A DNA stretch of 64,000 nucleotides, from assembly GCA_951804945.1 (NCBI GenBank), contig OX638160.1:27032001-27096000 (forward strand). The letters are read 5' to 3'. Shown here in pieces: positions 4,176 through 35,012 of the stretch. How positions within the stretch are numbered: position 1 is the first letter of the stretch; every line of letters begins with the position of its first letter. This DNA comes from Podarcis cretensis. Taxonomy: Eukaryota. The position numbers and the translations under genes are program-made. The notes below the pieces were generated by a model. That model was not told the origin of the DNA. It saw only the letters and a list, made by a program, of their open reading frames with translations, and made no database searches.

Positions 4176-4310
4176 CTTTAGAAAAGAGCGTCTCCCAACA
4201 TGCAACTGAAGGCATATTAAAACATTAATCTCTGATCATACATAATAAGTGCTGGTGTCTGTAAAGACTTATTTTCAGCTTAGATCTTTATCAACTTAAT
4301 TTGATCCTTA

Positions 4311-4456
4311 AAGGTAAAGGTAAAGGTACCCCTGCCCGTACGGACCAGTCTTGACAGACTCTGGGGTTGTGCGCCCATCTCACTTAAGAGGCCAGGGGCC
4401 AGCGCTGTCCGGAGACACTTCCGGGTCACGTGGCCAGCGTGACATCGCTGCTCTGG

Positions 4457-4487
<31 letters not shown>

Positions 4488-4693
4488 CGCACACGGAAAC
4501 GCCGTTTACCTTCCCGCTGGTAAGCGGTCCCTATTTATCTACTTGCACCCGGAGGTGCTTTCGAACTGCTAGGTTGGCAGGCGCTGGGACCGAGCAGCGG
4601 GAGCGCACCCCGCCGCAGGGATTCGAACCGCCGACCTTTCGATCGGCAAGCCCTAGGCGCTGAGGCTTTAACCCACAGCGCCACCTGCGTCCC
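4311..4693 (-). mobile_element. Sauria SINE, young subfamily with internal (GGCTCT)n
   Basis: On the - strand: tRNA-like head GGGACGCAGGTGGCGCTGTGG with B-box GGTTCGAATCC, and (ACCTTT)n tail; 14-bp TSD TAATTTGATCCTTA at 4297-4310 and 4697-4710; near-identical to 27009-27380 and 34598-34960. Confidence 0.93.
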
Positions 4694-5266
4694 TGATAAT
4701 TTGATCCTTATCAGTATGCAAAAGACTCCGTATTATGGTTGCAGGGTCCGTCCCCTCTTCACACACATTATTAAATAAGCATGAAACCTAGCTATAACCT
4801 AACTATAGCTGGATAGTTTGGTGAGAGGCCCAGGGAATGACAAAGAAGGTACACCGGATCTCCTTTGCTATACCAGCTACGCCTGCTGTTTTTTAATTAC
4901 CCACAAGTAGCTGCTGATTCTGAAAAAAAGTATTATTTAATAAGAGTGGCCCATTGGAGCAGAGCCTCCTGCACAACCCAAACGCCAATGTGGATTCTTC
5001 AGAATTCAGTTTAATTTATATTTCAAGACTGTCAGTCATTTCTCCCTCATTATGGTTAAAAAAAGGGGTCGATCAGAATATTTCTTTATTATTTATCTCA
5101 TACAATTTATAGACTCATTTATTATGATTTTTTTAAAAAAACGATCACAGCAGTTTACAAACAGAGTAAAACAATAAAATGATCGTAAAAACAGCTATTC
5201 AGATAATAATTCTTGATGATTTTGTAAAGTTCCCCCCCCCCCCAGGAGGCATTTTTGTTGGCTAAG

Positions 5267-6004
5267 ATGGGTTGCCGTGATGTCCATGCTGCGACAGTCC
5301 TCGCCTTCCTTTCTGGTACAGCTGCCTTATCTGGACTTATTGCCGCGGCTCTGCTGCCTAACTGGAGACAGATGCGACTCTTCACCTATAACAAGAATGA
5401 GAAGAATGTCACCGTGTACACTGGGCTCTGGATTAAGTGTGTTCGCTTTGATGGCAGCAAAGACTGCGTCATCTACGACACCGAGTGGTACACAGCAGTT
5501 GACCAGCTGGATTTACGCGTCCTCCAGTTTGCTCTCCCCATCAGCATGTTAACCACTGTCTTGGCTCTGTTTCTCTGTTTGATCGGCATGTGTAATACCG
5601 CCTTCATAACCACCGTGCCCAACATCAAGCAGGCCAGATGTCTCATAAACAGTGCGGGCTGCCATCTTGTGGCCGGCCTCTTCTTTCTTCTTGCATGTGT
5701 CATTTGCCTGTCGCCATCTATCTGGGTCATCTTTCATAACCAAGAACTGAACAAGAAATACGAACCGGTTTTTTCCTTTGACATCTCCGTGTTTATTGCC
5801 ATTGCCAGTGCAGGAGGCTTATTGTTTACAGCCATCCTCCTATTCCTTTGGTATTGTGCATGCAAAACGCTTCCTTCCCCTTTCTGGCAGCCTCTGTATC
5901 CTCATGCGCCCAGTGTGCATAGTTACGCCTCCCAACCTTATTCTGCACGGTCACGCCACTCTGCCATTGAAATTGACATTCCGGTTGTCACACACGCTTC
6001 CTAA
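5267..6004 (+). CDS. CLDN12: Claudin-12 (245 aa, single coding exon)
   Basis: [12 protein letters not shown]...GLWIKC..FDGSKDC (claudin W-GLW-C-C signature), four hydrophobic segments, C-terminus [14 protein letters not shown] typical of CLDN12. ATG at 5267 in aagATGg context; the upstream TTG start in the ORF track is not used. Acceptor C12-AG at 5244-5245. Confidence 0.98.
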
Positions 6005-10673: not shown

Positions 10674-11620
10674 CGAAATGCGTCACAGCATTCCGCACAC
10701 GCGCTCCATCGAGCAAGCAAAAAACATGGCAGCTGAAAGATACCGGCCCTGCAAAAAAAGCACTTGAGAAGAGCGCCGGGGAAGGGGCGTGGCCTATTCG
10801 TACTGAGGACCAGATGGACAGGACTTCACAGCCAACCACATTCGCCTGAGCCAGGGCTGGAGAAACTATTCGGCAGGTGCCCTCGGTTATCCAGGACTCG
10901 GAACCCTGTTTGGGAAAGCGGGCGCATGAGGAGGCGGGCAGAAAGGGGCGGGCCTCGGCTTCCGAGGGAGGAGCGCAAAAGCACGGAAGCGGGCGGGACT
11001 CCCAGCTTCACCCTCTCTATAGGTGCCTCAGAGGGAAGTGGGCGGAGCGAGGAAGTCGTGCCCGAGACTGTGCCGTTGCTCGCCCTGAGGCGGCCGGTGG
11101 GAGTGCGCTTGCGCAAGAGAAGGACCGATCTGTTCCTTAAATCACCTGAGGAGGGGAGTGGACGGGGCCGCGCAGGCCCGCCGTGAGGGGAGGAAGATGA
11201 TGGAGCGGGAGACGGCCGCGCGGTCTTGGCAACCGCGGCGGCGGCGGCTCTGGGCCTTCTGCCTGCCGTGCTGCTTCTTGCTGTGGTGCCGCCCAGTGAC
11301 AGGGATGGAGTCCACTGCGTCGCCTTCGCCATCTCCCGCTACGCGTAAGCGAGGAGGCCCTTCTGGGCTGCCCGGGACGGGTCGTGGCGGGTGAGGGGGG
11401 GGGCTCTGCTCTTCATTCCTCCCTGGTCCTGGTCTTGGTTGGAGGCAGGGGCCGGAGCGGCCTCTCCTTGGGCCCTTGGAGGGCCGGGCCGTTTCCCCCG
11501 CTTGTTTCCCCCTCCCCACCCTCACCCCCACGTAGGGCACCTTCAGGTACAAGCCGCGCGTCCCTCTTCCCCTCGCGAGGAAGCCCGACGCCAACTTCCC
11601 TTTCTCTGGCTCAAAGAAGG
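10660..11620 (+). promoter_or_regulatory. CpG-island promoter of the PTTG1IP-family gene
   Basis: Very high GC and CpG density; GC boxes GGGGCGTGGC (about 10784), GGGGCGGG (about 10945) and GGGCGG (about 10991, 11040); ETS-like CGGAAG/AGGAAG; overlaps coding exon 1. Confidence 0.85.
11197..11344 (+). CDS. PTTG1IP2: PTTG1IP/PBF-family protein, exon 1 of 7 (signal peptide; MMERET...SPSPAT)
   Basis: ATG 11197; basic then hydrophobic signal-like stretch; donor ACGC|GTAAGC, phase 1. The symbol rests on position between CLDN12 and CDK14; the sequence itself is canonical PTTG1IP-like. Confidence 0.85.
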
Positions 11621-12089
11621 AACTGTTAGAATGGGCAGGTGTATTATAGTGCCAGTTTCCGGGGACTGAAAGTTCCCCTTCTCGGTCTTGTTTGCACTCA
11701 TCCCAACCTAGATAGCCGTTTTGGACGTATCTGCCCTGTTAACTGCTGCCCCCTGGCCTCGATTCACTCCCCAACTGCCTCCTTTATCATGATGACATCT
11801 CCTCCGACATAACTGACCGCAGGACTTGGAAACCCATTCCCCTTTTTTCAGTGACAAATAAGGGATAATGGCTAATAGTTTAAATAACCCAGAATTGGAT
11901 TGTTGTGGGTGTATTTCCACTTAATTTTGTCTCCTGTTTCCTCCCTTCCTATCTTCCACCCCATGCCAGTACAGCTCAAACTGTGGCTGAAGCTAGCTGA
12001 TTACTTACAGACCACAAGTGAAAAACGAAAAGCTGTAAATCAGAAAGATTATCCTGGGGGCACCAAATAAGTCCTTCATGAGTACCATC

Positions 12090-12547
12090 CAGTGCCTTTT
12101 GTCTTTAAAAATGTTTAGGGGTACTCTCATTTTCCTACTCATATTGAAATAGGTAAAGGTAAAGGGACCCCTGACCATTAGGTCCAGCCGGGGCCAAGGG
12201 AGCCGGTGTACAGCCATGTGGCCAGCATGACTAAGCTGCTTCTGGCGAACCAGAGCAGCACTCGGAAACGCTGTTTACCTTCCCGCTGGAGCGGTACCTA
12301 TTTATTTACTTGCACTTTGATGTGCTTTCGAACTGCTAGGTTGGCAGGAGCAGGGACCGAGCAACGGGAGCTCACCCCGTCGCGGCCCGCCGACCTTCTG
12401 ATCAGCAAGTCCTAGACTCTGTGGTTTAACCCACAGCGCCACCCACGTCCCTCATATTGAAATACTGCTGCTCAATGTGGGCAAACTTAGATTTACAAAA
12501 TATTTAGGGGTGTGCGCCCCCTGCGTCCCCCCAGAAAAAAGGCACTG
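12090..12547. mobile_element. hAT-type MITE interrupted by a Sauria SINE
   Basis: TIRs CAGTGCCTTTT / AAAAGGCACTG; 8-bp TSD GTACCATC (12082-12089) / GTATCATC (12548-12555). Confidence 0.8.
12152..12450 (-). mobile_element. Sauria SINE, internally deleted
   Basis: GGTAAAGGTAAAGG antisense tail, CCACAGCGCCACCCACGTCCC antisense head; 14-bp TSD CTCATATTGAAATA at 12138-12151 and 12451-12464. Confidence 0.9.
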
Positions 12548-12889
12548 GTATCATCACATCCATGGGAGCTGAGTTGGCAGCCCCTGAAATATGCCAACCC
12601 TAGTTCTTGTCTAGATGAATGTAAGGCCAGACCTAAGATTCAGTATCCTGTTTCAAAATAGGGTGAAGTGTTTTGGGTGTGTTTGTGTGGTGCTGAATGT
12701 CTTGTTGACATCTCTAAGCAGAGTTTAGACTAGTACACAAATGGGTGGAAGTTGTTTTGGAGGATTTGCAGTTCTTTAATGCATTCTAAAGTGTTTTAGC
12801 ATAGTTCAGATTCAAATTTCATAGCTGTCAGAAAAATAATAGATTCAATTAAGTTCTTCATTTTTCATGCAAACTTTATTCCTTTCCAG

Positions 12890-12942
12890 CATGTGCTGCT
12901 TTTACTCAAAAGACATGTGAAGAATGTGTAAAAAATACCAAA
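12890..12942 (+). CDS. PTTG1IP2: PTTG1IP-family exon 2 (PCAAFTQKTCEECVKNTK; start of PSI domain)
   Basis: tttccAG acceptor, AAA|GTAAGT donor, 53 nt, phase 1 to 0; matches PBF CSQNTNKTCEECLKNVS. Confidence 0.92.
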
Positions 12943-13373
12943 GTAAGTTTAGTCACTTTTATATCCGGGGGGATTTTCTAGTGATAACATAAGTGGATAT
13001 TTCTTGCACAGGCAGAAGAAAATGTTTTGCAAGTATTTGTTGCTGCACTTCAGTAGAAAATGGAAGTCCTTATTCTCTAATGGAAATTTACTGGACAAAC
13101 TCTCACACAACTGACTCATTCACCATGGAAACTGGAACCAGTTGCTATTTTTTCAGGGAGCCTTGGAAAACTGTTCTTTATTTTATGTGCTTTTGCAAGA
13201 AACTATATGCTCAAAGTGATGTGCTCTAATACCAAGTTGCTTTACACAGTAGACTTGAAGGGGAGAGCACTGTTGCATTCAAGTTCTTCTTTTGGGCTTC
13301 TTGTGGATATCTGAGAACAGAGCTGCACTGATAGGCATTTGATCTGATCCACCAGTCTCTTGTGTACTTAAGG

Positions 13374-13870
13374 CAGGGGTCTGCAACCCGCGGCTCTGGA
13401 GCCGCGTGTGGCTCTTTTACACCTTTGCCGCAGCTCCGAGGCGGATACTAGCGAGGGGAGGAGGCACATTGTGCGCCCCGACACTCCCCACTGTGGCGGG
13501 CGCTGTACTGGCTGTGAAGTCGCATGGGGGCGGTGCGTACGTTAGTCACGCACCGTCCCGACGTCACCTTCCCGCCCGCCTGCCCGCTACATTGTAAGGG
13601 GCATGTACGCTGGTCACTGCATTGAAAGGGGGCATGTACGCTGGTCACTGTTTTGAAGGGGAGTGAAGAACACACACACAAAAAAAGGTAACTTGTTAAT
13701 TTAACGTTTATTTCTATGAGGAGGAGTAATTCTGAGGGGTCAAACAAAGAAATAATAAAAAAGTGACAAAAAAGTTATTTTTATAATGGCAAGTTTTGCG
13801 GCTCCCAGTTTTTTTTTCTTCGGAAATGGGTCCAAGTGGCTCTTTTTGTCTTAAAGGTTGCAGACCCCTG
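13374..13870. mobile_element. Young hAT (Charlie-like) non-autonomous transposon, 497 bp
   Basis: Perfect 15-bp TIR CAGGGGTCTGCAACC; perfect 8-bp TSD ACTTAAGG at 13366-13373 and 13871-13878; CpG-rich interior. Confidence 0.93.
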
Positions 13871-14299
13871 ACTTAAGGCATGACTTGACTTTTATAGGAT
13901 AAAACAGCTCCCCTTGATTTGATAATTACAACTCATAATTCTGTGCAGAGTTCAAATGTTTAAAAATCTGCTTTAAATTAGTATAGAATAGAGTTCTTTA
14001 AATTATAAACATCTGGTTTGAAAACAACATAAGCATACATTGCAGCAACTTCTCAAAGTGCATCAGTTTTAAAAAATATATATCAATGTTAACAACACAA
14101 AAGGATATCAAAACTTTCTCTAATACTGAGCAGTTTGCCAAAGTTTTTAACATAGTATGTACAAAATGGTCAGAACTGTTTGCCAAGGCTTTTAACAGAT
14201 ATTGTGAGCAGGGTTGTCAACAATGGTCTGTGTTTACTCAACTGCCCCAATTCGACAATAACTTCAAGCAGCACCAATGTAGATAGGAGCTGCTGTGTA

Positions 14300-15130
14300 T
14301 TGGATTTCAGTCTCTCACCAGGAAACCAGTCTCCCTGAACTCTAGCTGTGAGAGGTTGTATTTGCTGCTGGGGTAGAGAAAGTAAGTAGGGATTCTGTCA
14401 GTATAATGACCATTCCGCTGACCAACAATTTCCTTCCCTGAGCGGATAGATTTGATGTTGGGGCTAGTGTTTGAAAACCCCCCCGACTTTGGTTCTGGGG
14501 GATTTAAACATGCATGCTGAAACCATCTTAACAAGTCCAGCTATCACGACTGTTATGGAACTATCTCAGTATACATCATAGACCCAATGTATAGAGTAGC
14601 TCATACCTGCAATCTGGTTCTCACAAATGGAAGACTTATAGATGTGTCCGGAGAAAGTACAAATCACCCTGTTGTCATCAATCAACAATTTCCTTGTAGG
14701 ATTTAGGCTATTGATAGTGTTGCCACCCTGCAAGGATGGATGACCCCTTAGAATGTTCCGTAGCAAGACACTAATGGAATCTAAGGGATTCCTGAATGCT
14801 CTAGGGAAGTTTCCAGTTGGCATGGCTGATCGCATCTGAGGCCCTGATCTCACTGTGGAATGGTGAGATGGGAAGGGTCATAGATTGAGTCAGTCCTGAG
14901 CACTCTCCTAAGCTTGACTTCCTGGTTTTCAGATGAGCTCTGGTCAGTGAAATAGGCTGCATGACTGTTGGAGCATAAGTGGAACAAATAGTGTACCAAG
15001 TACAACTGACCACCACTGTTAAGAGTGCATGTTTGCACCTACTGAGTGGTAGTGGTGGCAGTGAAGAAGGTTTACCGTTGCATCCTCATGTGGCTATTCA
15101 GCAGAGCTTTTCCAGGCAGTGATGGTGCTA
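14300..15130 (+). mobile_element. Decayed L2-type LINE ORF2 fragment (endonuclease end and linker)
   Basis: Frameshifted + strand translation gives LVLGDLNMHA (APE GDxN motif, about 14488-14517), GFLNALGKFP, EALISLWNGEM.RVID and WFSDEL..VK...LLEHKW, resembling squamate L2 ORF2; many stops. Boundaries approximate. Confidence 0.75.
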
Positions 15131-16236
15131 AAGGGATCCTCCCATAAGGGAGAAGGCCTTGAACCTTCAGATGCTTGCTGTGACAGATCGGCCAGGTACT
15201 TTTAGAATAGCTTCTCCATTTGTGACATATCCTTGGGATTTATGTTTCCCCTTCTGGTTATACTTGTGGGCTCCAATATCTTCTTTCTTTGTTGAAATAT
15301 ATAAACCGGGTCTACTTTGTTTTGAACAAATTAAGGACTGATTGGTTTGGATATAAAGGGAGACTAGTATGATTTGTTTGAAAAAACCAAGGAGGAAGGT
15401 GGGGAGAGTAGGAATCAGAGGATTAGTCATAAGTGGCCAAACCATGGCTTGCTTTTGCATGCATTCCATTACCAAGTCATGAAAACTATTTTTATAAGAT
15501 GTCCATTTGTTTAAATAGTACATAATTCTTTAAAATAGTACATAATTCTTCTGTATTTAATAGCAATGAATGACTTTTGTGGTAACTGCAGATAGTTTGT
15601 TAGCACTGGCCTTGTGACTGTGAGACTGTTTACATTTTAATATCCGTTTTTGAAAGTTTTCTTCACTTTCCCTAATTTGGTTATGTACTCTTCAGAAGTA
15701 AAGACTGATTTAGTTGTATTGGTGTGGTACAATGGCCCCATATTTTTTTTAAGCTGTAGCTCAGATAGATAATATCCCTTTGTACTCAGTAGTTGTTTTG
15801 TCCGAAAGAATAGCCTTATTGTGTTAAACCAACATCTAACCCAGTATCTACTGTCCAACTGCTCTTGGACAGTTGGACAGTAACAATTTAGAGCAAGCAT
15901 CTTTGGAAACCTTTTGCTGCCCCTTTCACAGCTATAGGTTCAGCAACAGGGCAGAAAAAAGGAGCAGAGCCAGGAAGCAGTGGAAGAATAAAAGTGTAGG
16001 AGAAGTATTTAATGTTGAAAAGATAAAATGAAGTGGAGGCAAGGAATAAGATTGGGCAATAACTGCTGAACATCTTACCTCTTCTGTAAATTCCTGCTAG
16101 CACATTTACACCAACATTTCATTTAAAATCTTCTTGTACAGTTCTTACAATGTGAACAAAGTAACTTCTGAGCTATTGTGAAGTTACTAAAGCAACATAA
16201 ATAAATATATTGTAAACACTGACAAAGTTTAGAGTA

Positions 16237-16400
16237 AAAACAAAATAAAAAATTCCTTCCAGTAGGTATCTGAAGAAGTGTGCATGCACACGAAAGCTCA
16301 TACCAAGAACTAACTTAGTTGGTCTTTAAGGTGCTACTGGAAGGAATTTTTTTATTTTGTTTTGACTATGGCAGACCAACACAGCTACCTATCTGTAACT
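16237..16400 (+). mobile_element. Penelope-like element terminal (pLTR) fragment with inverted 5' piece
   Basis: 13-bp TSD AAAGTTTAGAGTA at 16224-16236 and 16401-16413; 16237-16265 is the reverse complement of about 16334-16363; contains a hammerhead core; near-identical to 25298-25432. Confidence 0.85.
16265..16304 (+). ncRNA. Minimal type I hammerhead ribozyme motif
   Basis: GGUAU (stem I) - CUGAAGA - A - GUGUG CAUG CACAC (stem II) - GAAA - GC - UC - AUACC (stem I'); predicted cleavage after C16299. Confidence 0.8.
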
Positions 16401-16928
16401 AAAGTTTAGAGTAGTTCTGGTAACAGAATGATGAATGACATTCACAATGCTGCAGTCTTAGTCTCATCCTTGAGGAAGCATAAGCCTGACCTTCATTTAC
16501 CTGGATCATATGTGATGCTAAGTCAAACCATTGCTTAATATAGGTGAATGTGAGGGTTCCCAGAGAGAAGATGGCAGCTGCTTCTGCACATATCTCCTAC
16601 TGCAACCCAATTCATGGTCTGGCTTATTGTGTCATTTGAACCCAGGAAACATTGCCATTGGGAGAGGGCACCAGGAGCAGAGGAAGAAAAGTGTTGTAGT
16701 TTCTACTAACTGTAAAACTGTCATTGGCTTCTTTTAATACCTCAAAAATTGACATAGAGGGTCTGCTTCAATCACTGCCTGCTCCCCACAGAAAATGTCA
16801 AGTTACAGCTCCATTTTAGTTTAATTTCAGACTATGTTAACTTCTCAAGAAGTGTACGATTGAGTGGTTGACTTGCATACTTCCTGATAAGACTACTTCT
16901 GTTTATTTTTCACTTTTGTTCTGCTTAG

Positions 16929-17037
16929 TGTCTTTGGTGCCATGTCAATTCCACTTGTATGGACTATCCTGTGAGGAAACTCATTCCACCATCTTCGCTG
17001 TGTAAACTTACAGACGCTTATTGGGCAATTTGTTGGG
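16929..17037 (+). CDS. PTTG1IP2: PTTG1IP-family exon 3 (CLWCHVNSTCMDYPVRKLIPPSSLCKLTDAYWAICW)
   Basis: cttAG acceptor, G|GTAGGT donor, 109 nt, phase 0 to 1; matches PBF CLWC....C.DYPV...PP.SLC.L..A.W..CW. Confidence 0.95.
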
Positions 17038-17558
17038 GTAGGTAATGACTGTGATTGTCTTTAATTTATTGTTACTTGTAATGGAAGCCATGAAATGATG
17101 ATCATAATTCTTCATGCAAAAGTACTTAACTGGAGTTCTCCTACTAGTCAATATTTCATATATGCACATTATCTTACATGGACTATTTATAAGCTTAAAA
17201 GTAGTCTTGCACACAGCACTAATCACCATTGGATTTCCTGAAGCTTCCATTTTAATGAGACTGTTTTTCTGGGAAGTTTGTTTCTGAATTGTTTACTGCT
17301 GATCTCTGATGCTGAACAGAAAAAACACAGTTCTGCTAAGTGGTAGGCTTAATAATAAAGTTGAGTTCTCTGGATAATGTTGTCCTCTTCTGAAGTTGTC
17401 TTCTCTGATTTGCGTTCAGTTAATCAACTCACTTAGCTTGCACAATTGTTGCATTCAGTTATAATACCGCATCATGGTATAATGTTATGACAAGGAACTT
17501 AGTTTCCCCTCAGATGGTCACAAGAAAGTGATAGGTTGTTGCTATGTTAATTTTAGAT

Positions 17559-18214
17559 CAGGGTGGATAAAAATCAATGTTTTTTTAAAAAAAAAATTAA
17601 AAATTGAATTTTTTAATTTAAATCGGATTTTATTAAATTTAAATTGGATTTTAAAATAAAATGCTTTTGGAGGAAAAATCTTTCTAGAGATAGTTTTCTA
17701 TTTAAGTTACATTGTAGTCCAAAGGGTATTCATCAGGAAATAAGGATTTCTTAAAAGTTTTTCATGTGTGCTAAGACTCAGTCTTAAGGGTTTTTTTAAA
17801 ACAACAACCATTTAACCACATCAGTTAACAAACATGGATACATATGCTATAATGTTATTGTTTTAGTTAAATAATCATTTCCTTAATAACAATTAAACAA
17901 TTTATTTTTCTCCTTCCAATAAAGTACAGCAGAAAAGTTGTCCAAATATAAACAGTTAACTTATTAACCCTCACAATAATTTCAGAATTATCTGTCTATG
18001 TATTTCTAATAGTAATTTTTGATATAACTGTAAAAACTACTCTGAAAATTTACAATTCCAAAAATGAAACCTTCATCTGGTTGTAAATATTAAGATTATA
18101 CCAGCAAGCATGGGTCTTTCTGTAAAAAAAAAAAAAAAGATTTAAATCAAGTCTTATTGACTAGTGATTTAAATCATGATTTAAATAGATTTGATTTAAA
18201 TCAAATCCGCCCTG
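17559..18214. mobile_element. AT-rich hAT non-autonomous transposon, 656 bp
   Basis: TIRs CAGGGTGGAT / ATCCGCCCTG; perfect 8-bp TSD TTTTAGAT at 17551-17558 and 18215-18222; subterminal GATTTAAATC repeats. Confidence 0.9.
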
Positions 18215-19220
18215 TTTTAGATTAAGTGTAGTTTAATGCACTGCAGTTTAACATATCATCTAAATTCTAAACAAGCCACTCCATAATCATGGTTGGAAGT
18301 TAACGTCTTTTCAAGCAAACCATAGTTAAGATTAACAACAGTTTGTTTGGTTCTGACAAAACAGCAAACCACAGTTAATCAAAATGGAAATGAAAGCTGA
18401 TTTCATGGGCTGGGCCGGGAGCAGTATGGGAGCCCAAAGCTTGCTGCAGCCTATTTCAATTGTTCTAAACTATGGATTAGCCTTGCATTCAATGTCTCTT
18501 TGTTTTAAATTGTTTATATGAGGGAAGAGTTCTTACAATACTTCAGATCCACTTGTTTATTGAGGGTTATCAAAAATAGATTTCACTGTTCACAAAGTTC
18601 TGTCGTAGTACATGAGTTCTCTTTATATGTTACACATGTAGAAGGAATGCAGATGGGTTTTTTGCCTAACCCCATGTGAAGTTTAAGTTGAAAATATCTG
18701 ATTTTGCTACCCATGTAATTCTAATTCTCTCATTTTGAAATGTGACATTTCCTTTAGTGGTTGTTTTCTATTTTCTTCCAGGATATCTGCCTAATATTGT
18801 AGAAGACATACTTGAGAATGGATAAAATTGAAATTTGGATTCCATAGCGTCACTTGCCCTTTTAAATAAACAGACCATGTGCTAATGTTCTGACTATCTT
18901 AATATGCTTAGTTTTAAGTTTAATTACCAGTTTTAAGATCTTTGATACAAGAACTAACCTATTAAAATGTGCAGGGCAGTACCTTGGACCCAGTTAGATG
19001 GAATCTCTAAACTAGAAGAACACATTTCACAATGACAGGCCCATCTACTTCATCACATAAGTGAATTCCAGTCATTCCATTAAGATATAATATGTAAGTT
19101 GCTGCAGGGTGGTCTTCTAATGGGCCTTAGTCGCTTCCCTGCATGGAGCTCTTCTCTGTTACTGTATTTCCTTCCTTTGCTAACCTTTGCATGTACTAAA
19201 ATTCTGCTTTTAATTTTCAG

Positions 19221-19326
19221 TCAACTTTGAGGCTATGATCATCAGCATTGCAGTTGTAGCAGGCTTCCTTCTCCTCCTTATAGGATGTTGTTGCTGTTAC
19301 TGCTGTCGCAGACGTCGTTCTAGAGG
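19221..19326 (+). CDS. PTTG1IP2: PTTG1IP-family exon 4 (VNFEAMII... transmembrane helix, Cys cluster, RRRRSR)
   Basis: ttttcAG acceptor, GG|GTAAAT donor, 106 nt, phase 1 to 2; WVNFEA motif, TM segment and CCCCYCC. Confidence 0.95.
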
Positions 19327-20206
19327 GTAAATGGTTTTTCTTAGTAACTTTGCTTGATTTTCCTCCTCCTGACTTCGTCACCATTAATCTATAATAAAGT
19401 TGTCCTTGAAATTAAGGGTTATACAAATGTGATTTTAAGCATCTGATTGAAAAACATATGGTCGTCTTTGTTTACAAAAATTACAGGGATCCCCAGTACA
19501 GAATGGGTCTGCTCTACATTGAATGTAAACTTCGTGTCAGAACTGGGTTTTTCTTTTAAATTTAATGTACAGTTTCCTGAAGAAGGTATTATACACTTGA
19601 AACACATTGGATATCTGAAACATAAATTCCATTAAAGGCACTTTCATGACATGTTGGGGCTCATTCTTTAATGTCCATTACACATTGTGTCCACTGGGTG
19701 TCAGTGTTTTTTCCTCAATATGCTCATATGAAGTAGCAGATTAAAGATCTGTCTTTTAACCTAAATCAGTTTTATATGTCTTGCTATGATGCTGGTGAGT
19801 TAAAAGCTAGAAAGAACCATGTTTTGGCCTCTGATTCCTATTTCACACTTCCTCAGGTGAATTCAAGAAGGGAATCAATAATCTACTGCTAGTGAGAGAA
19901 ATGGTTCCCAGTCAACGAATCCCATACTAGGATATCCAAGATCGTCATTTTTATATTGAATTACCAACACTCTTATTTATTCCACAAAATATATGACACA
20001 TAAGGTGCAGTCAATGAATCATGACTTTCAAGTGTGTGTTAATGTCAGCTTCAAATTCTTCAGTATAAGATACCACTTATGATTAACTTGTAGAGAAAAT
20101 GCTGCAAATTTGTGAATGTATGGGTAAACTAACAAACATAAATTCCTCATAAACTATATATCAGAAATTATAGTTTTTTTATTTAAAAAAGTGCTTTATT
20201 TCTTAG

Positions 20207-20275
20207 GCGACCATCTGAAGAAGAAGAAAGATTTATCAGAGATCGGGAAGAAAAAAGAATGCAGTCACTTCAGCG
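20207..20275 (+). CDS. PTTG1IP2: PTTG1IP-family exon 5 (GRPSEEEERFIRDREEKRMQSLQ)
   Basis: tttcttAG acceptor, CG|GTATGT donor, 69 nt, phase 2 to 2; charged helical segment as in PBF. Confidence 0.92.
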
Positions 20276-20962
20276 GTATGTTTCAAAGCTTTTCTTTTTT
20301 TAAAAAACACCTAAATACCGTACATAAGTTTTGCTCATAGATGTCATTTTAAAAAAGCCAGCTAGGGATATGTTCAGTATAGCCTTGCTATAAAGCTTTG
20401 TAAGCATTAATTGCAGTAGTTCACTCTTAGTATTTATTAGGCAATATGCTTGTAAGCTGGCTCCTAAGGGTTTCAATAAATGCAACTCATGATGCTAGCT
20501 AGAGGCTTTGAGACCCTAAAAATAATAATTTGATGCTTGAAGGCAGTCAGCTATCTTGTACAAGTAGATATACAGGTCTGCTTCCAGACAGTGGTGGAGG
20601 AAAGGCAGCATAATGGAATGAAGCAGTATTGGGTGAGTCATCAGACCTTCTGTTTACAGCTCCAGGATAGCAAGATGTTCTGCCCTGGTGCTGATCCATT
20701 TTGTTAGCTGTTCTCCTGAGGATCTTCAAAGCTGGAGTCTATTTGTGCTAAATGTGAATAGTAATAGTGGTAGTATTTTATATGAAATATAAAATGAATC
20801 ACACTGTTTGCCTGATAGCACCCATAGTGATGTACATTTTTTTAAAAAATCACTTTTTAACCCCTTGCTAGAACACAGAATGCAGGCTGACAGGAACAGC
20901 AATAATTTCCAGTAAGGATGTCTGATTTCTTAGTTTTCTAAGTCAAAGAGAAATTATACATA

Positions 20963-21126
20963 TATCTAGATTGCCACCATGTATAAGATGCCCCCTATTT
21001 TGGGGGACTCCAAATTAAGAAAACACCCCTCAGAACTACCTGTGTATAAGACGAGCCCCAATTTATAAACCTACTTTTTTGGTTAAAACAACAACAACCC
21101 TAGTCTTATACACACAAAATACGGCA
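20963..21126. mobile_element. Degenerate Tc1/mariner-type MITE
   Basis: Repeated TGTATAAGAT/C motif with its inverse GTCTTATACAC and terminal AAAATACGG; left end eroded. Confidence 0.45.
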
Positions 21127-22360
21127 TGTGCATGTTTCTTCAGAAGTATTGATTATATATTCATTTAAGAAAACGTATATCCCACTTTTTAGTGCTAAAG
21201 TACCACTCAGGGCAGTTTTCAAAACCTGAAAATTGCAGTTACATAAAAGTATATAAAATTGACCACAAAGAAATGTTCATCAGTTAAAACTAAAGCATTA
21301 AAATCATCTGCCACATACAGCAGAAGCCTGCAGGAATAAAACTGTCTTCAACAACTGGTGAAAATTAGCATTGCGTAAATCAGGCCACACTTCACAGCAG
21401 GGCTTTCTATAATCTTGATTGCAACCACCGAGAAGGCCCTTTCTCTGAAATATGCTTCCACCCTAGATAGGGCACAGAGAAGCTCAGATTCTTTGAAACG
21501 GAAATTAATATTTGCAGAATTCCTCTTGGGACACTTTGCTCAGGCTTGCTGATACTTGTTACTGCAGTGTTATACTGCAGTTTATCATTACATGTGAACC
21601 AGCATATAGTAAGTTGGTAGGACTGTGGTTCAGTAGTAGAAGCTAGTCTTGCTTCTTATATTTGTCCCAAATTTAGGGTGGGATGCAGTCCTAACTAAGT
21701 CCTAAGTCTTTTGCACTAAGTCAGTCCCAAGAACCCTGTAAGAATCATGCAAATGATACTGCAATGTTAGGAGTCAAAGGCATGAGTCTTTTGTAGTTTG
21801 GTTCATGTCCCTCATGTCATGTTAAATTTATTGTTGGCTTTGGACTATTGAGTAGCAGGAGATCTCCCAGCATTCCATTTAACTTCAGCTGCTAAGATGA
21901 TCAGTCCTGGATTTTTTTGTAGGCAACCTCTGGCTAGAAGAAAAGCTGTCTAAGCTAATATAGCATCTATCTGTCTACTGAAACCTCAACAAATCTCCTT
22001 GTGTATTGCTACAATTTATAAGTTAATTTTCTTGGCCATTAAAAAAACCTTTCATTTTACAAGCTGTTACGTATGTTAGAATAAGAATATGCTTATTCAG
22101 TATGCATACATCATTCATTGGAAACCCATACATTTGAACTGATGCCTTATTTAGATATTACACTGTGATGGACATTGCATCACAGTGCAACATAATATAT
22201 TGATGCAGTCCTCTATCTAGAGTTTATTTTGAGGCAAGATCTGTGTTCCACTTATCTTTGTGTTCTAATGTGTAAGCAGGAGTTAATTATATTGCTTTGT
22301 CGTATTTTGCTTAAAATTACGTCTTCAAGTATTTGTTTTTTATGCTCATAAACTTTTCAG

Positions 22361-22407
22361 AAAACATGAAAGAAAAGTGAAGCATGATGAGATACGGAAG
22401 AAATATG
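22361..22407 (+). CDS. PTTG1IP2: PTTG1IP-family exon 6 (RKHERKVKHDEIRKKY)
   Basis: ttttcAG acceptor, G|GTATGT donor, 47 nt, phase 2 to 1; HDEIRKKYG motif of PBF. Confidence 0.95.
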
Positions 22408-25238
22408 GTATGTATAATTCACATTTAAACACCCCACCCCCAATATTTAGCCCCAGTAACCTATTCTTACTTCATGAACTATCTGGAAAATACATCTTCA
22501 TACCTTCCCTGTCCCAAAAAAGAGTTTGGATGCTGCTGGAACCTATTTGTTATATGGTCTCCATATTATATGTGGTTTGCAGGGTAATTTATGATACAAA
22601 TATGATGTTAAAGCAGTTTCAGTGTCTTGCTGGTCCTTCTCCTTGTAAGATGGCAAGCCGGTCTTGCAGATGCCAGACCATGGTTCTGCAGTGAATTTGG
22701 GATCTTAACTCTCCTGCAATATACCTGCCCTTACCCTGAACATTTGCCTAAGGGACTACGTTTAATTCTTAGCTTGTCTATGGAGCTCCCAACACCAGAT
22801 TGTGAGTTTAATATTGCAATTTTGTTGAATTTTGAATGGTGGAGGCAAGAGAGAGTGAGTGAGGGAAGCAAAAGTTGCCTTCTTTAGCCCCTAATGGTTT
22901 ATAGTGTCTTGGAGGTGAGGGAAAATACAGGCAGTGGTGGGAAATACTTTTAAATTAATTTGTTAATTTTAACCCTGCCTCCAATAGAGCCAAGGATGGC
23001 ATGCACATAATCCATTCTAATAACAGAATAAAACATTAAAAACACTCCATTCAAAAATTACAGTCAACAGTACCAGTCAACTACAACACATTGGCTCTCT
23101 GCTGTTGCCTGCAGTTATGACACAAAGATCAAGTTTATTTGTATCATATCACAAGAGTGAGGTATATTAAAACATATATTAAAACACTCAATAGTCAAAC
23201 TCTCTTCGGCTATTAACCTGCAGTAACATGTTTTGTAGTATATTGCTTCACCCTCTCTAAATCAAAAGTTATAGCTGCTTGAGTGACTAGAGAGATCATG
23301 TAGATGGAAAGGTAGTGTGAAGTATAAGTCATCTGCAGGCTTTACTGCTGTAGAGTTTTCTTTTTAGTACTTTATTTTGCTCTTAAGTCTAGTAGCTTAT
23401 GGATATTTGAGTTACACGTTGAACTAAAGTGCTTGGGACACAATCCAGCCCAAATTTTATAGACAGCTGCTTCTATGATGTAGTCTTCTAATTATTGGCA
23501 AAAAGAATTTATGCCATGGTGTAAAAGAGGAGAAAGCGCCATATGTACAGTGTACTGGGATAAGTGAGGTGAATCCTGTGCCCAGGATTAGAAATCGGAA
23601 TTACTTACTGTGCATACAATTAAAAGCAATCTATTAATCTACAAAAAATCCTGCATATTTCTTATTCTGCACAATTCTGCTACACCCTAGCTAATATCTA
23701 TTAAAGTGTTACTTAGTCTCCCTGTCTTCTGAAAGTTCACTGGGCACTGCTCCTAAATCTGAAAATCTTCACTACTGTAAGGACTAGAAATATTGTATAC
23801 CCATACTCCTTTGCTTACGCAAATTCTGTGATCACAGAATACCCATCGCTTGAATTATTAATGTAAGCAGCTCCTTTCTATATCTTTGGACAGTAAGCAT
23901 TTAATTGGGATGCTTTCATCATTTTTTGAAAATTAAGCACTACTAATTGCCTAGTTCATATTGCTAGTTGGTATCCCTTCTCCGCAACAGTGCACCTCCT
24001 GTTTAATATAAATCTGGTCCATACATCATTGCAAACTTCACTCAACAAGGGCCTAATAAAGAATGTTGCAGAAAACTGTAAATGCACTAGATCTTCCCGT
24101 CTTCAGTGGTGTGCAGAGGAGTCTTCTCATTTAAATAGGCAAGAATGAATGGAGAGTAGCAAATGCTTTGCTAACCCATCACTAAATTAAGATAACATCT
24201 GAAATGTCAGCCTTGTTTGGCTTTGAGGGAATGTCTTTTTACCCCTATTTCACCCATCAGCTTTTCTTGCTCCATTTAAATGGTAATTATAAATTTATAA
24301 TGCATTGCAGGTGTTGCTCACTCTAGCCACAGTCCTTTGGGAGCACTGGAAGCAATAGAGCTTTAATAAGTGGGACTACTCGGTTTGAGTAGTTCCTTTG
24401 TTATGCGATTTGCCACTTTTTTATAAGAAACCCTGGTATGAATACAGTTTGATTGCTTAAATTATAGGTTCATGGCTAAATGAGTTTGAGCAGCATTTAA
24501 ATTATTTTTCACTGTGGTAACTTTCAAAGGAAATAGATGCAATTGTTGCATACATGCTACAATTCTGTTTGTTATGCAAGTAAAACATTACAACATTTTA
24601 TGCTATGCCTTTGTTTAGATTCTGAATACTGTTTCATATAGTAGGGGAATCAACAGAAGGTAGATCATGGTCCACTGGTTGACCAGTGGCCAGTTTCTGG
24701 TGGACTACCCGAGTATGTGTTTCTTTATCTGTCTATTGTGAAAACTGTTCATTTATTCCTACTCTGCTTTTTGTGCTTTAGCCAGTTACTGATCTGTAAG
24801 AGGACCTGCTATAAATTTGCTCAAGCAGCTTGGCCAAAAGCTTTTTAAAGCCCACAAGCTTATTAATGTTTCAAATAAAAAAAAATCTAAAAGGTTACTG
24901 GCACAGGATTTACCTTTGCATAATCCATGTTGAGTCTTCTTAAGCATTCCTGGATTTGCAGTGTGTTCCTGACACCTTCTACTTCTCCACTCTGACTAGC
25001 CACATGCTTCTCAGTCATCTGCTGCTTAGCCATATTGCCAAGGACCCAAGAAGTTCCCAAACTACATGTAGTCATGGTCAGAATGAGCCAATATAACTGG
25101 CTGGAAGTGAAACCATTTTACCAATTGTTGCTGGCTTAATGTCTGAAGGCAAAGAAAACTGAAGAATGTCCTTTAGATAAAACAAAATAAAAAAATTCCT
25201 TCCAGTAGCACCTTAAAGACCAACTAAGTTAGTTCTTG

Positions 25239-25276
25239 GTATGAGCTTTCGTGTGCATGCACACTTCTTCAGATAC
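25239..25276 (-). ncRNA. Minimal type I hammerhead ribozyme motif (antisense copy)
   Basis: Exact reverse complement of GTATCTGAAGAAGTGTGCATGCACACGAAAGCTCATAC. Confidence 0.75.
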
Positions 25277-25297
25277 ACACTTCTTCAGATACACAGT

Positions 25298-25335
25298 GTA
25301 TCTGAAGAAGTGTGCATGCACACGAAAGCTCATAC
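25298..25335 (+). ncRNA. Minimal type I hammerhead ribozyme motif (sense copy)
   Basis: GUAU - CUGAAGA - A - GUGUGCAUGCACAC - GAAA - GC - UC - AUAC; predicted cleavage after C25331. Confidence 0.78.
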
Positions 25336-26264
25336 CAAGAACTAACTTAGTTGGTCTTTAAGGTGCTACTGGAAGGATTTTTTTTATTTTGTTTTGACTA
25401 TGGCAGACCAACACGGCTACCTATCTGTAACTGGTCCTTTAGATACTTAGCTTCGGGCCATATTGATCTGTAGATTAGGGATGGGGAACTTATGGCCCTC
25501 CAGGTATTGTTGAACCCTAACTGCCATCTGCCCTATCCAGCATGTCCAGTTATCAGGGAATTAATTCCATTTTTCCCTGTTAGTGGATATAGTCTCAAAC
25601 AATAACTACTTTCTAGTAGGTGAAGACCTTTCCTGACTCTCTGGAATAATTTAAGGGCAGAGTCACCTTCATACATGCTACCTTCCCTTTAGATCTGCTG
25701 TAGTTCACAACCATTATTAAAAGAGAGAACCTGCCACATCAGGTGGGGCTAACCTGCGACTGGTGGGAGTTGTAGTGCAACACCATCTGAAGGGCCACAG
25801 GTTGGCCACCCAGGTGCTCCATGTGATAAGGCATGCTTATAAAGTGGATAGACACAGTTGGCACACATAGGTTGCATGATCTGCTTGCTGTTTGGTCATT
25901 TGGGTTGTTGCCATCAGGAAGTTATTTTAAAGCTTTTGTTTGAAGCCTGAACCATGTCTATGTTTGAATGTCGACAATTCTGTATGATATCTTTTACTGT
26001 GCCTATCAGTAGATTAGATTATAATTGCTTGTTATGTGATTTTGCTACTGTTGCCTACCTGTTTGTATGTGTCACTGTATGCATCTGATTGCTGGTCAAC
26101 AGATAGTCATTGAAGGGCTGGGACTCCTTTTCTCTGTGAATAATGTTCTTTATGTGTTGGCATATCAGCCTGTCTATACATTTTCACATTGTCTTGTGCA
26201 TCTGATCACTAAGCTCATATCTGTTGTCTGCTTTCTAATGTCTCTTATCTCTCCACCCCTAATT

Positions 26265-26677
26265 CTATTTTTAAAATATATTTTATTTATAATTTTTGGG
26301 TTTATACATTTCAATAATTTTACAGTCATTTTAACATTTCACAACTTGACTTCCTTCCCCTTCTTTCTGCAGTTCCTTAAATTTATTTTTTAATATTTTC
26401 TGCATATTAACTTGATTTGTTTATTTATTCATCTACTTAAAATATATACTCTTATGAAACTGCAGGTTATTACAATAATTCTGCCATTGTTCTTATCTGT
26501 TTACAATTTGTAAATACTCAATATATCATTTCTATTATTTTATTAAAAAGTTTGTTATCTTGATTTCTTACTTTTCTGGTAAGTTTCGCCATTTCTGCTT
26601 ATTCCATAAGTTTTTGTATCCATTCTTCTTTTGCTGGGACTTCTTTCCATTTTTGAGCAAGTTCCATTCTTGCCTCC
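26265..26677 (-). mobile_element. 5'-truncated L1-like LINE (ORF2 C-terminus and 3' UTR)
   Basis: - strand translation LAQKWKEVPAKEEWIQKLME..EMAKLT resembles a squamate L1 ORF2 end; 12-bp TSD CCACCCCTAATT at 26253-26264 and 26678-26689; T-rich left end. Confidence 0.75.
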
Positions 26678-27008
26678 CCACCCCTAATTTTAGATTCTGT
26701 TACTTGTCTTTGTACCAGAATGTCATACTTCATAACTCCAGTGTTAAGTACTCCCATAATGACACTTCCTGTGCTGTCCTTGTGCTATGAGTGTCTTTTG
26801 TTTATACCGGTACATATCAGTGTACTCTTAAAATAGATAATGTCATTGTGTGTGGACACTGCATGCCAGTTTTAATTGCTTCCTTAATTGGTGAGTAATC
26901 AGGTTAGACTAGACATGATGAAACTCCTTTGTGTCTGTGGGCACTAAGCCTTGATTAAAGTTCTTGATGGATGGTGAAGTATGATTTGAAGCCTTCTAAG
27001 TTTTAATT

Positions 27009-27380
27009 GGGGACGCAGGTGGCGCTGTGGGTTAAAGCCTCAGCGCCTAGGGCTTGCCGATCGAAAGGTCGGCGGTTCGAATCCCTGCGGCGGGGTGCGC
27101 TCCCGCTGCTCGGTCCCAGCGCCTGCCAACCTAGCAGTTCGAAAGCACCTCCGGGTACAAGTAGATAAATAGGGACCGCTTACCAGCGGGAAGGTAAACG
27201 GCGTTTCCGTGTGCGGCTCTGGCTCTGGCTCTGGCTCTGGCCAGAGCAGCGATGTCACGCTGGCCACGTGACCCGGAAGTGTCTCCGGACAGCGCTGGCC
27301 CCTGGCCTCTTAAGTGAGATGGGCGCACAACCCCAGAGTCTGTCAAGACTGGCCCGTACGGGCAGGGGTACCTTTACCTT
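27009..27380 (+). mobile_element. Sauria SINE, young subfamily
   Basis: Full head GGGACGCAGGTGGCGCTG, B-box, (ACCTTT) tail; 12-bp TSD TAAGTTTTAATT at 26997-27008 and 27381-27392. Confidence 0.94.
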
Positions 27381-28201
27381 TAAGTTTTAATTAACTATTT
27401 AGAATTTGCCTTCACTTTTTCTTTTAGCTCAGTAGCAAGTGTTTCTGGTTTCTTAGTCTGTGTGTTGAGCTGCTCTTCATAAGGTGTTGGAGTGTTGTCT
27501 ACTTTTTCTAGGTGCTGCTCATCATATTTTTCCAGTAGCACTATTATAAACTGAGATCATATAATCCTTACAATTGTACTTGTACTCCTTACCTTTTTTG
27601 TACTTGATGTTCATCCTGGCACCCAAGCGACAACCTAGTTTGTTGTGATGACATGATATTATTCTATTTGCAATTTGGAAGCAGAGTTCACTTCATCAGC
27701 TCTGCTATGAGAGGCCATCTCCATCAGGCCTTCTCTCCCCTCAGCTGCCATCTGCAGGCAGGCATTTGATCAGGCTGCCTCAATGGGGGAGGGATAAGAA
27801 GGGCTCATTTCATCAGCTTTGCTGGAAGCGCAGCTTCATCAGCCACCTCCTGCCTCTGAATTATGCCAGCTGGTCACTATAGGAATAACGGTTTAGAAAT
27901 TAGTTTCTGAGTTTTGATTTTCCTCTTCCATCTCTGTCCCTTTCCCCTTGTGGTTTGTGGGTAGGCTTGTTTTGCTTGTATGTAAGTGACTCTGGGATCC
28001 TTTTTGGCTGAAAAGCTGGGTACAGGTGCTCTAAATAAATAAATAAATTTTGACATGACAGAACAGGTTCAATGTACTGGTGCAGTAATTGGGCTGTACC
28101 ATCCTTGGCAACATAGCTAGCTGGTTTGCTATGTTTTAGCTACCTTGGTTGAACAATATTTTCTTAAATATGTTATTTTAATTGTCCTGCTTTCCCCCCA
28201 G

Positions 28202-28251
28202 GTCTCCTTCAGGATTCTGACCATCCATATAGCAGATATGAGAATGAATGA
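28202..28251 (+). CDS. PTTG1IP2: PTTG1IP-family exon 7, coding part (GLLQDSDHPYSRYENE*)
   Basis: tttccccccAG acceptor (28200-28201), TGA at 28249-28251; aligns with PBF GLFKEENPYARFENN. Total CDS 582 nt = 193 aa plus stop. Candidate AATAAA signals near 28577 and 29153. Confidence 0.93.
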
Positions 28252-34460: not shown

Positions 34461-35012
34461 GAGGAGCCAGAGCTCAGACCACATGTTTGGTATGCAGAAG
34501 GTCTCAGGTTCAATTTCCAGCATCCTCCAGGTAGGGCTTGAAAGAGGCCTGTCTGAAACCCTGAAGAGCCACTTTCAGCCATTGGTAATGCTGAGCAGGT
34601 GGCGCTGTGGGTTAAAGCCTCAGCGCCTAGGGCTTGCCGATCGAAAGGTCGGCGGTTCGAATCCCTGCGGCGGGGTGCGCTCCCGCTGCTCGGTCCCAGC
34701 GCCTGCCAACCTAGCAGTTCGAAAGCACCTCCGGGTGCAAGTAGATAAATAGGGACCGCTTACCAGCGGGAAGGTAAACGGCGTTTCCGTGTGCGGCTCT
34801 GGCTCTGGCTCTGGCCAGAGCAGCGATGTCACGCTGGCCACGTAACCCGGAAGTGTCTCTGGACAGCGCTGGCCCCTGGCCTCTTAAGTGAGATGGGCGC
34901 ACAACCCCAGAGTCTGTCAAGACTGGCCCGTACGGGCAGGGGTACCTTTACCTTTACCTTTAATGCTGAGCAAGATAGATTTGAGTTGGTATCAGGCATC
35001 TTCTGGTATGGT
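34461..35012 (+). mobile_element. Older tRNA-derived squamate SINE (Squam3-like) split by a Sauria SINE
   Basis: TGCAGAAGGTCTCAGGTTCAATTTCCAGCATC..CAGGTAGGGCT..CTGAAACCCTGAAGAGCC before the insertion and GCTGAGCAAGATAGA...GGCATCTTC after it; family assigned from a recalled consensus. Confidence 0.55.
34598..34960 (+). mobile_element. Sauria SINE, young subfamily
   Basis: 12-bp TSD TAATGCTGAGCA at 34586-34597 and 34961-34972; a few 5' bases missing; (ACCTTT)3 tail. Confidence 0.93.

Follow-up and report, generated by a model that had tools for sequence, protein, structure and literature searches.

Two hammerhead ribozyme cores on the sense strand of one gene raise the question of whether they act on the host pre-mRNA or are passengers left there by a transposable element. 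The gene lies in a window of 64,000 nucleotides (the whole stretch of DNA analysed) from Podarcis cretensis (assembly GCA_951804945.1, contig OX638160.1, positions 27,032,001 to 27,096,000 of the forward strand), in which the earlier note had reported identical 38-nt cores at two sites. Both were found there (Table 1), each reading GTAT-CTGAAGA-A-GTGTG-CATG-CACAC-GAAA-GC-TC-ATAC on the + strand, and a motif descriptor agreed that the catalytic core, stem I, stem II and the self-complementary AGCU are intact. The anatomy comprises a helix I of 4 bp (5 bp in copy 1), CUGAAGA, an extra A, GAAA, GC and UC; helix II, with 5 bp closed by G10.1-C11.1, forms a perfect 14-nt palindrome together with its loop, and the palindromic AGCU stands in for helix III. 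The CUGAnGA ... GAAA ... UH core of minimal hammerheads (min-HHRs) is present, as are their short helix I, extra nucleotide after A9 and palindromic 15.2-16.2. The predicted 3′ products would begin at 16300 and 25332, as had been foreseen.

A 26-nt core pattern gave 0 matches in 100 shuffles, and the isolated core is predicted to form stem I with a probability of about 0.7 and stem II with one of about 0.98. The Rfam check suggested earlier was less helpful, with no hammerhead family among 29 covariance model matches at E ≤ 5, so that the hammerhead assignment rests on the motif descriptor and the element context. Rfam microRNA matches at 25218-25356 scored under the gathering scores and are due to an inverted repeat, which includes a third, complete and antisense copy of the core. 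Motif and context together bear out the Penelope-type minimal type I identity put forward before (PMC4209133; the papers cited here are used for the parts of their text available to us), and on this basis the cores are members of the min-HHR class of Penelope-like elements (PLEs), with putative activity. A generic hammerhead descriptor also gave a loose match with weak stems at 19571-19612 (+) in intron 4, which is probably due to chance.

The host gene has coding exons at 11197-11344, 12890-12942, 16929-17037, 19221-19326, 20207-20275, 22361-22407 and 28202-28251, separated by six introns that are all GT-AG, and the cores fall in intron 2 (12943-16928) and intron 6 (22408-28201). The intron placement claimed for the two copies thus stood, whereas the PTTG1IP-family name gained no support: Pfam analysis of exons 1, 3 and 4 gave no PTTG1IP-family match, and an Atlas search with exon 3 gave no usable match. 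We nevertheless take the gene to be of this family from its Cys-rich ectodomain, transmembrane segment, and CCCCYCC and HDEIRKKYG motifs. A claudin-like single-exon ORF with a weak PF13903 match lies at 5228-6001 (+); we assume it to be claudin-12-like, in which case its adjacency would suggest that the host gene is the PTTG1IP2 paralogue. A literature search on PTTG1IP2/CLDN12 yielded nothing useful for the gene name among the matches listed. The surrounding DNA also holds three near-identical copies of a SINE-like repeat, presumably Sauria-SINE-like and so in keeping with a squamate genome, at 4310-4693, 27010-27387 and 34595-34963 (100% identity over 221-232 nt), and the copy at 27010 is likewise inside intron 6.

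Table 1. Coordinates of the host gene, the two insertions (stubs) and their hammerhead cores in the window.
Feature	Position	Strand	Remarks
Host gene, presumed PTTG1IP-like	11197..28251	+	7 exons, 197 aa
Stub 1, left target-site duplication, 13 bp	16224..16236	+	repeated at 16401-16413
Stub 1, short inverted piece of element end	16237..16265	-	ribozyme core not covered
Stub 1, sense piece	16266..16400	+	hammerhead, 5′ UTR, first 11 ORF codons (ATG 16368)
Hammerhead core copy 1, minimal type I	16266..16303	+	intron 2, predicted cut after C16299
Stub 1, right target-site duplication	16401..16413	+	
Stub 2, left target-site duplication, 12 bp	25168..25179	+	repeated at 25434-25445
Stub 2, inverted piece	25180..25294	-	full antisense core (25239-25276) and short re-copied junction stretch
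Stub 2, sense piece	25295..25433	+	differs from stub 1 at 2 positions in 135 nt
Hammerhead core copy 2, minimal type I	25298..25335	+	intron 6, predicted cut after C25331
Stub 2, right target-site duplication	25434..25445	+	

Each stub is bounded by its own target-site duplication, indicating separate insertions, and segmental duplication of one insertion was ruled out by the unlike duplications and arm lengths. The ATG of the element ORF lies 68 nt past the cut site, and the last 33 nt of the stub are the first codons of this ORF, which goes on in the copies L031 and L035. Stub 1 was reached from both flanks in contigs of 4/4 runs (three labelled organisms), with 10 differences in about 1,200 nt between its locus and one relative's run (X5), and stub 2 was reached from the left flank in both runs of organism A, with no piece listed at that place for the two other runs (X5 and X6). 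The presence of stub 1 in three organisms, in a comparison of orthologous sites that covered close relatives only, implies that it predates their split and implies nothing about function; copy 1 is thus no private insertion, a point to be set against the explanation favoured below. At the junction at 25262-25296, and in the copies L066, L104, L113 and L134, the segment reaching from helix II to the 5′ start has been re-copied, as though the cDNA end had annealed again to the helix II GU repeat.

The same core is abundant and very homogeneous across the 1.51-Gb genome, as expected of a young family, with 6,322 exact 38-mers (3,134 on the + and 3,188 on the - strand) and 12,783 cores within 2 mismatches of a 30-nt core, evenly split between the strands. 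Longer copies extend upstream to a promoter-like region and to an ORF with reverse transcriptase (RT) and GIY-YIG domains. The RT domain (RVT_1, PF00078, E 8e-13) was detected above cut-off in copy L035 and the GIY-YIG domain (PF01541, E 8e-6) above cut-off in copy L038, the two matches coming from fragments of two different copies; only fragments and no intact full-length element were found. In L034, L035 and L038 a C-x4-C-x2-C linker, fitting the pattern CX2-5CxxC, precedes the nuclease, and the core lies about 190 nt past the ORF stop, the placement expected of a pseudo-LTR. The choice of Neptune over Nematis rests on the linker and on our assumption that Neptune is the vertebrate clade. 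Judged from these sequence features, the stubs are derived from a young Neptune-type Penelope-like retrotransposon.

An older, decayed minimal hammerhead family (L039-L063) shares the core and AGCU and differs in its stems; it is found among 25 pattern matches, against 3 for the control. Searching these 25 loci with pieces of the Neptune ORF by tblastn gave no match and hence no ORF link, and L040 and L057 resemble a third hammerhead family. A C2H2 zinc-finger gene array (L035, 1-926) adjoins a long rearranged copy of the element.

The earlier note had proposed that the sense copies could pair with each other in cis, by way of AGCU, and cleave the pre-mRNA during its transcription, altering splicing or output of the gene; such cutting would free a 9,032-nt piece with exons 3-6. 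Both cores are indeed intact and on the sense strand, dimer cleavage is the accepted mode for these ribozymes (PMC4209133; PMC6765202), and conserved intronic hammerheads are known in amniotes (PMC6155905). The statement that such hammerheads cleave efficiently as dimers was nevertheless too strong, since low activity is described for dimers and trimers in the available text of PMC4209133, and no cleavage without protein in that of PMC11167929. Copy 2 is moreover the 3′ arm of an inverted repeat with 105-nt arms that are 97% complementary. In its context the predicted probability of stems I and II is 0.0 and forcing both would cost 64.9 kcal/mol, so that copy 2 is predicted to be fully paired, and the antisense arm is transcribed ahead of it. 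For a pair of free 40-mers, the predicted energy of the active dimer, in which helix III is swapped, is +2.5 kcal/mol relative to two monomers, a value that still excludes the cost of closing a 9-kb loop, and the minimum-energy dimer would pair instead via the helix II palindrome (-17 kcal/mol). Chance alone should also give 120-489 pairs genome-wide with both cores on one strand and no more than 9,032 nt apart; among the first 100 exact matches listed, there were 4 same-strand pairs within 10 kb and 16 opposite-strand pairs. Cleavage of the host pre-mRNA by a cis dimer is not supported by these results; the motif is real and its origin ordinary, and regulation of this kind is very improbable.

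Somewhat less remote, and still unlikely, is slow cutting of copy 1 alone in trans, aided by element protein or RNA in cells that express the family, such as those of the germ line; this would mean a slight mutational load and not regulation. Copy 1 has a predicted opening cost of only 4.7 kcal/mol in its context, and the hammerhead of the anole Poseidon element cleaves once element protein is added (PMC11167929). Against this, free cores would favour the inactive helix II duplex over the active dimer by about 19.5 kcal/mol; to act on its RNA template the anole protein requires the first 172 nt of the ORF, of which the stub holds 33 nt (by analogy, as the anole element belongs to another clade); and anole RNA-seq has no ends at the cut site (PMC11167929). 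We consider it very probable that each motif came in by an independent, recent insertion of a PLE stub carrying the known minimal hammerhead of its element, and that both are likely inert passengers in the gene. In the host pre-mRNA, copy 2 would be bound up by its antisense arm, copy 1 would be without a partner, and both introns would accordingly splice normally. Some observations sit less easily with inert passengers. Two sense cores in any single 17-kb gene are uncommon (Poisson 0.0006 for exact and 0.0025 for near-exact copies), and for the putative element transcript and some genomic copies, folding predicts that stems I and II form with ease: among 60 sampled intact cores (all located in the opening 7.9 Mb of a single contig, with both arms of an insertion counted), the predicted opening cost was below 3 kcal/mol in 9. 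Burial is common, however, this cost being at least 25 kcal/mol in 29 of the 60. All these folding results are equilibrium predictions.

What the hammerhead may do for the element itself was approached through the positions where copies start. To map starts, pieces were located by a motif that lies 14 nt past the cut (position 0); 99 of the first 100 were used, a sample drawn from the opening 7.9 Mb of a single contig in which both arms of an insertion are counted. Over a third of them (36/99) begin at -40 to -30, with 13 at -36 and 6 at -34, and none (0/99) begins at the cut, although two pieces begin within 2 nt of it (at -1 and +2). Genome-wide counts, made with patterns that demand two non-reference letters upstream, were 1,003 for starts at -36, against 25 at the cut and 12 at the +4 control position. 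The excess at the cut over the control is small (25 vs 12, p = 0.047) and argues against a strict rule that copied RNA is never cut; in 15 of these 25 starts the upstream letters match stem I or its complement. By hand count, T precedes the -36 start in 83 and GT in 54 of the first 100 matches listed; an A added at the end of the template, or slippage there, may explain this. In the long copy L018, CCAAT stands at -121 and TATATA at -67, and the A of TCAGT falls at -37, giving 30 nt from TATA to the initiator-like A. This is the canonical spacing. No description of the 5′ start pile-up was found in the literature as far as searched.

A start at -36, about 30 nt past a TATA box and at an initiator-like motif, would place the hammerhead at the likely capped 5′ end of an RNA that is copied uncut. 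Element transcription would thus begin about 37 nt ahead of the cut, under the CCAAT, TATA and initiator-like TCAGT elements, and the hammerhead would occupy the first ~40 nt or so of the element RNA. By analogy with the anole element in vitro (PMC11167929), the element RT may prime inside the beginning of the ORF and run off the uncut 5′ end, yielding copies of about 135 nt, in front of which a second, inverted copy would often be joined. Tentatively, a hammerhead within the first 40 nt of a capped RNA, ahead of the start codon, might serve as a self-decapping switch: self-cut RNA would leave both translation and the template pool, only uncut RNA would be copied to its very 5′ end, and the telomerase-like RT would add an extra A or slip on the terminal GU repeat. 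We offer this combination as a possibility that falls well short of an even chance.

A less likely alternative reads the -36 pile-up as a 3′ splice site (TTCTGTTTCAG/T) or as a hot spot of template switching, in place of a capped RNA end. The letters at -36 fit an acceptor, and in Drosophila virilis Penelope the intron extends up to the 5′ start of helix I (PMC4209133; intron and promoter, PMC2377424). The 13 sampled copies that start at -36, however, have no common upstream exon and by eye mostly abut the inverted arm or flanking DNA, and the 30-nt distance from TATA to initiator also favours a promoter. For template switching, short homology to helix II explains some junctions (7 of the first 100 matches listed start with TC), but an RT blocked by the fold should halt on its 3′ side, before copying it. 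Plain stalling at the fold was rejected as the cause for the same reason, the pile-up being on the wrong side.

Comparison with described systems places the family among PLEs and sets it apart in several details. Metazoan PLEs carry min-HHRs in their pseudo-LTRs (Cervera and De la Pena 2014, PMC4209133); unlike those in the available text of that paper, the present family is very homogeneous, its 5-bp helix II and loop form a 14-nt palindrome, and its 5′ starts pile up just ahead of helix I, a feature not described there. An RT, a Cys-rich linker and, at the C terminus, a GIY-YIG domain are shared with the EN+ Neptune and Nematis elements (Craig et al. 2021, PMC8557442), for which the C-x4-C-x2-C-type linker is a mark and inverted 5′-truncated pieces are typical. 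The 5′-truncated copies with an adjacent inverted copy and the optional 30-40 bp tail recur here as well; in contrast to the elements of that study, ours is known from fragments and is placed with Neptune/Nematis by the linker. In Anolis carolinensis, the Poseidon element PAc (Frangieh et al. 2024, PMC11167929) likewise has a hammerhead near its ORF start, a tail matching internal RT start sites and uncut RNA as the main template, yet it belongs to another clade and its ORF begins inside the ribozyme, whereas the ATG here follows the cut. In the accessible part of that paper, the PAc hammerhead is described as uncleaved unless element protein is present and as lacking RNA-seq ends at the cut.

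The amniote hammerheads of RECK, CTCL and DTNB, proposed to affect mRNA biogenesis (PMC6155905), are also type I and in introns, but they are conserved across lineages and have tertiary contacts, in contrast to a young repeat of more than 12,000 copies with fresh target-site duplications. Such a domesticated hammerhead was ruled out by the 6,322 identical copies and the fresh duplications. Non-LTR retrozymes (bioRxiv 10.64898/2026.07.22.740005) are PLE-derived and have a type I hammerhead too, but form tandem arrays, whereas the copies here are dispersed single stubs with inverted arms; a retrozyme was rejected, as there are no tandem units and the first 100 exact matches listed include no two on the same strand within 5 kb of each other.

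For gene regulation the locus carries little weight, being repeat debris of a known kind, with a prediction that the supposed partner core is blocked. The family bears more directly on the role of the hammerhead in Penelope-like transposition: the 40-fold excess of starts before the ribozyme over starts at the cut agrees, on the side of the genome, with work in vitro in which uncut RNA served as template, and more than 12,000 near-identical cores would lend strong power to an intron strand-bias test of activity in vivo. The arms of stub 2 also form a near-perfect 105-bp intronic hairpin (25174-25400), with similar fold-backs in about half of the sampled copies, and this hairpin is a likely dsRNA substrate for editing or small-RNA processing.
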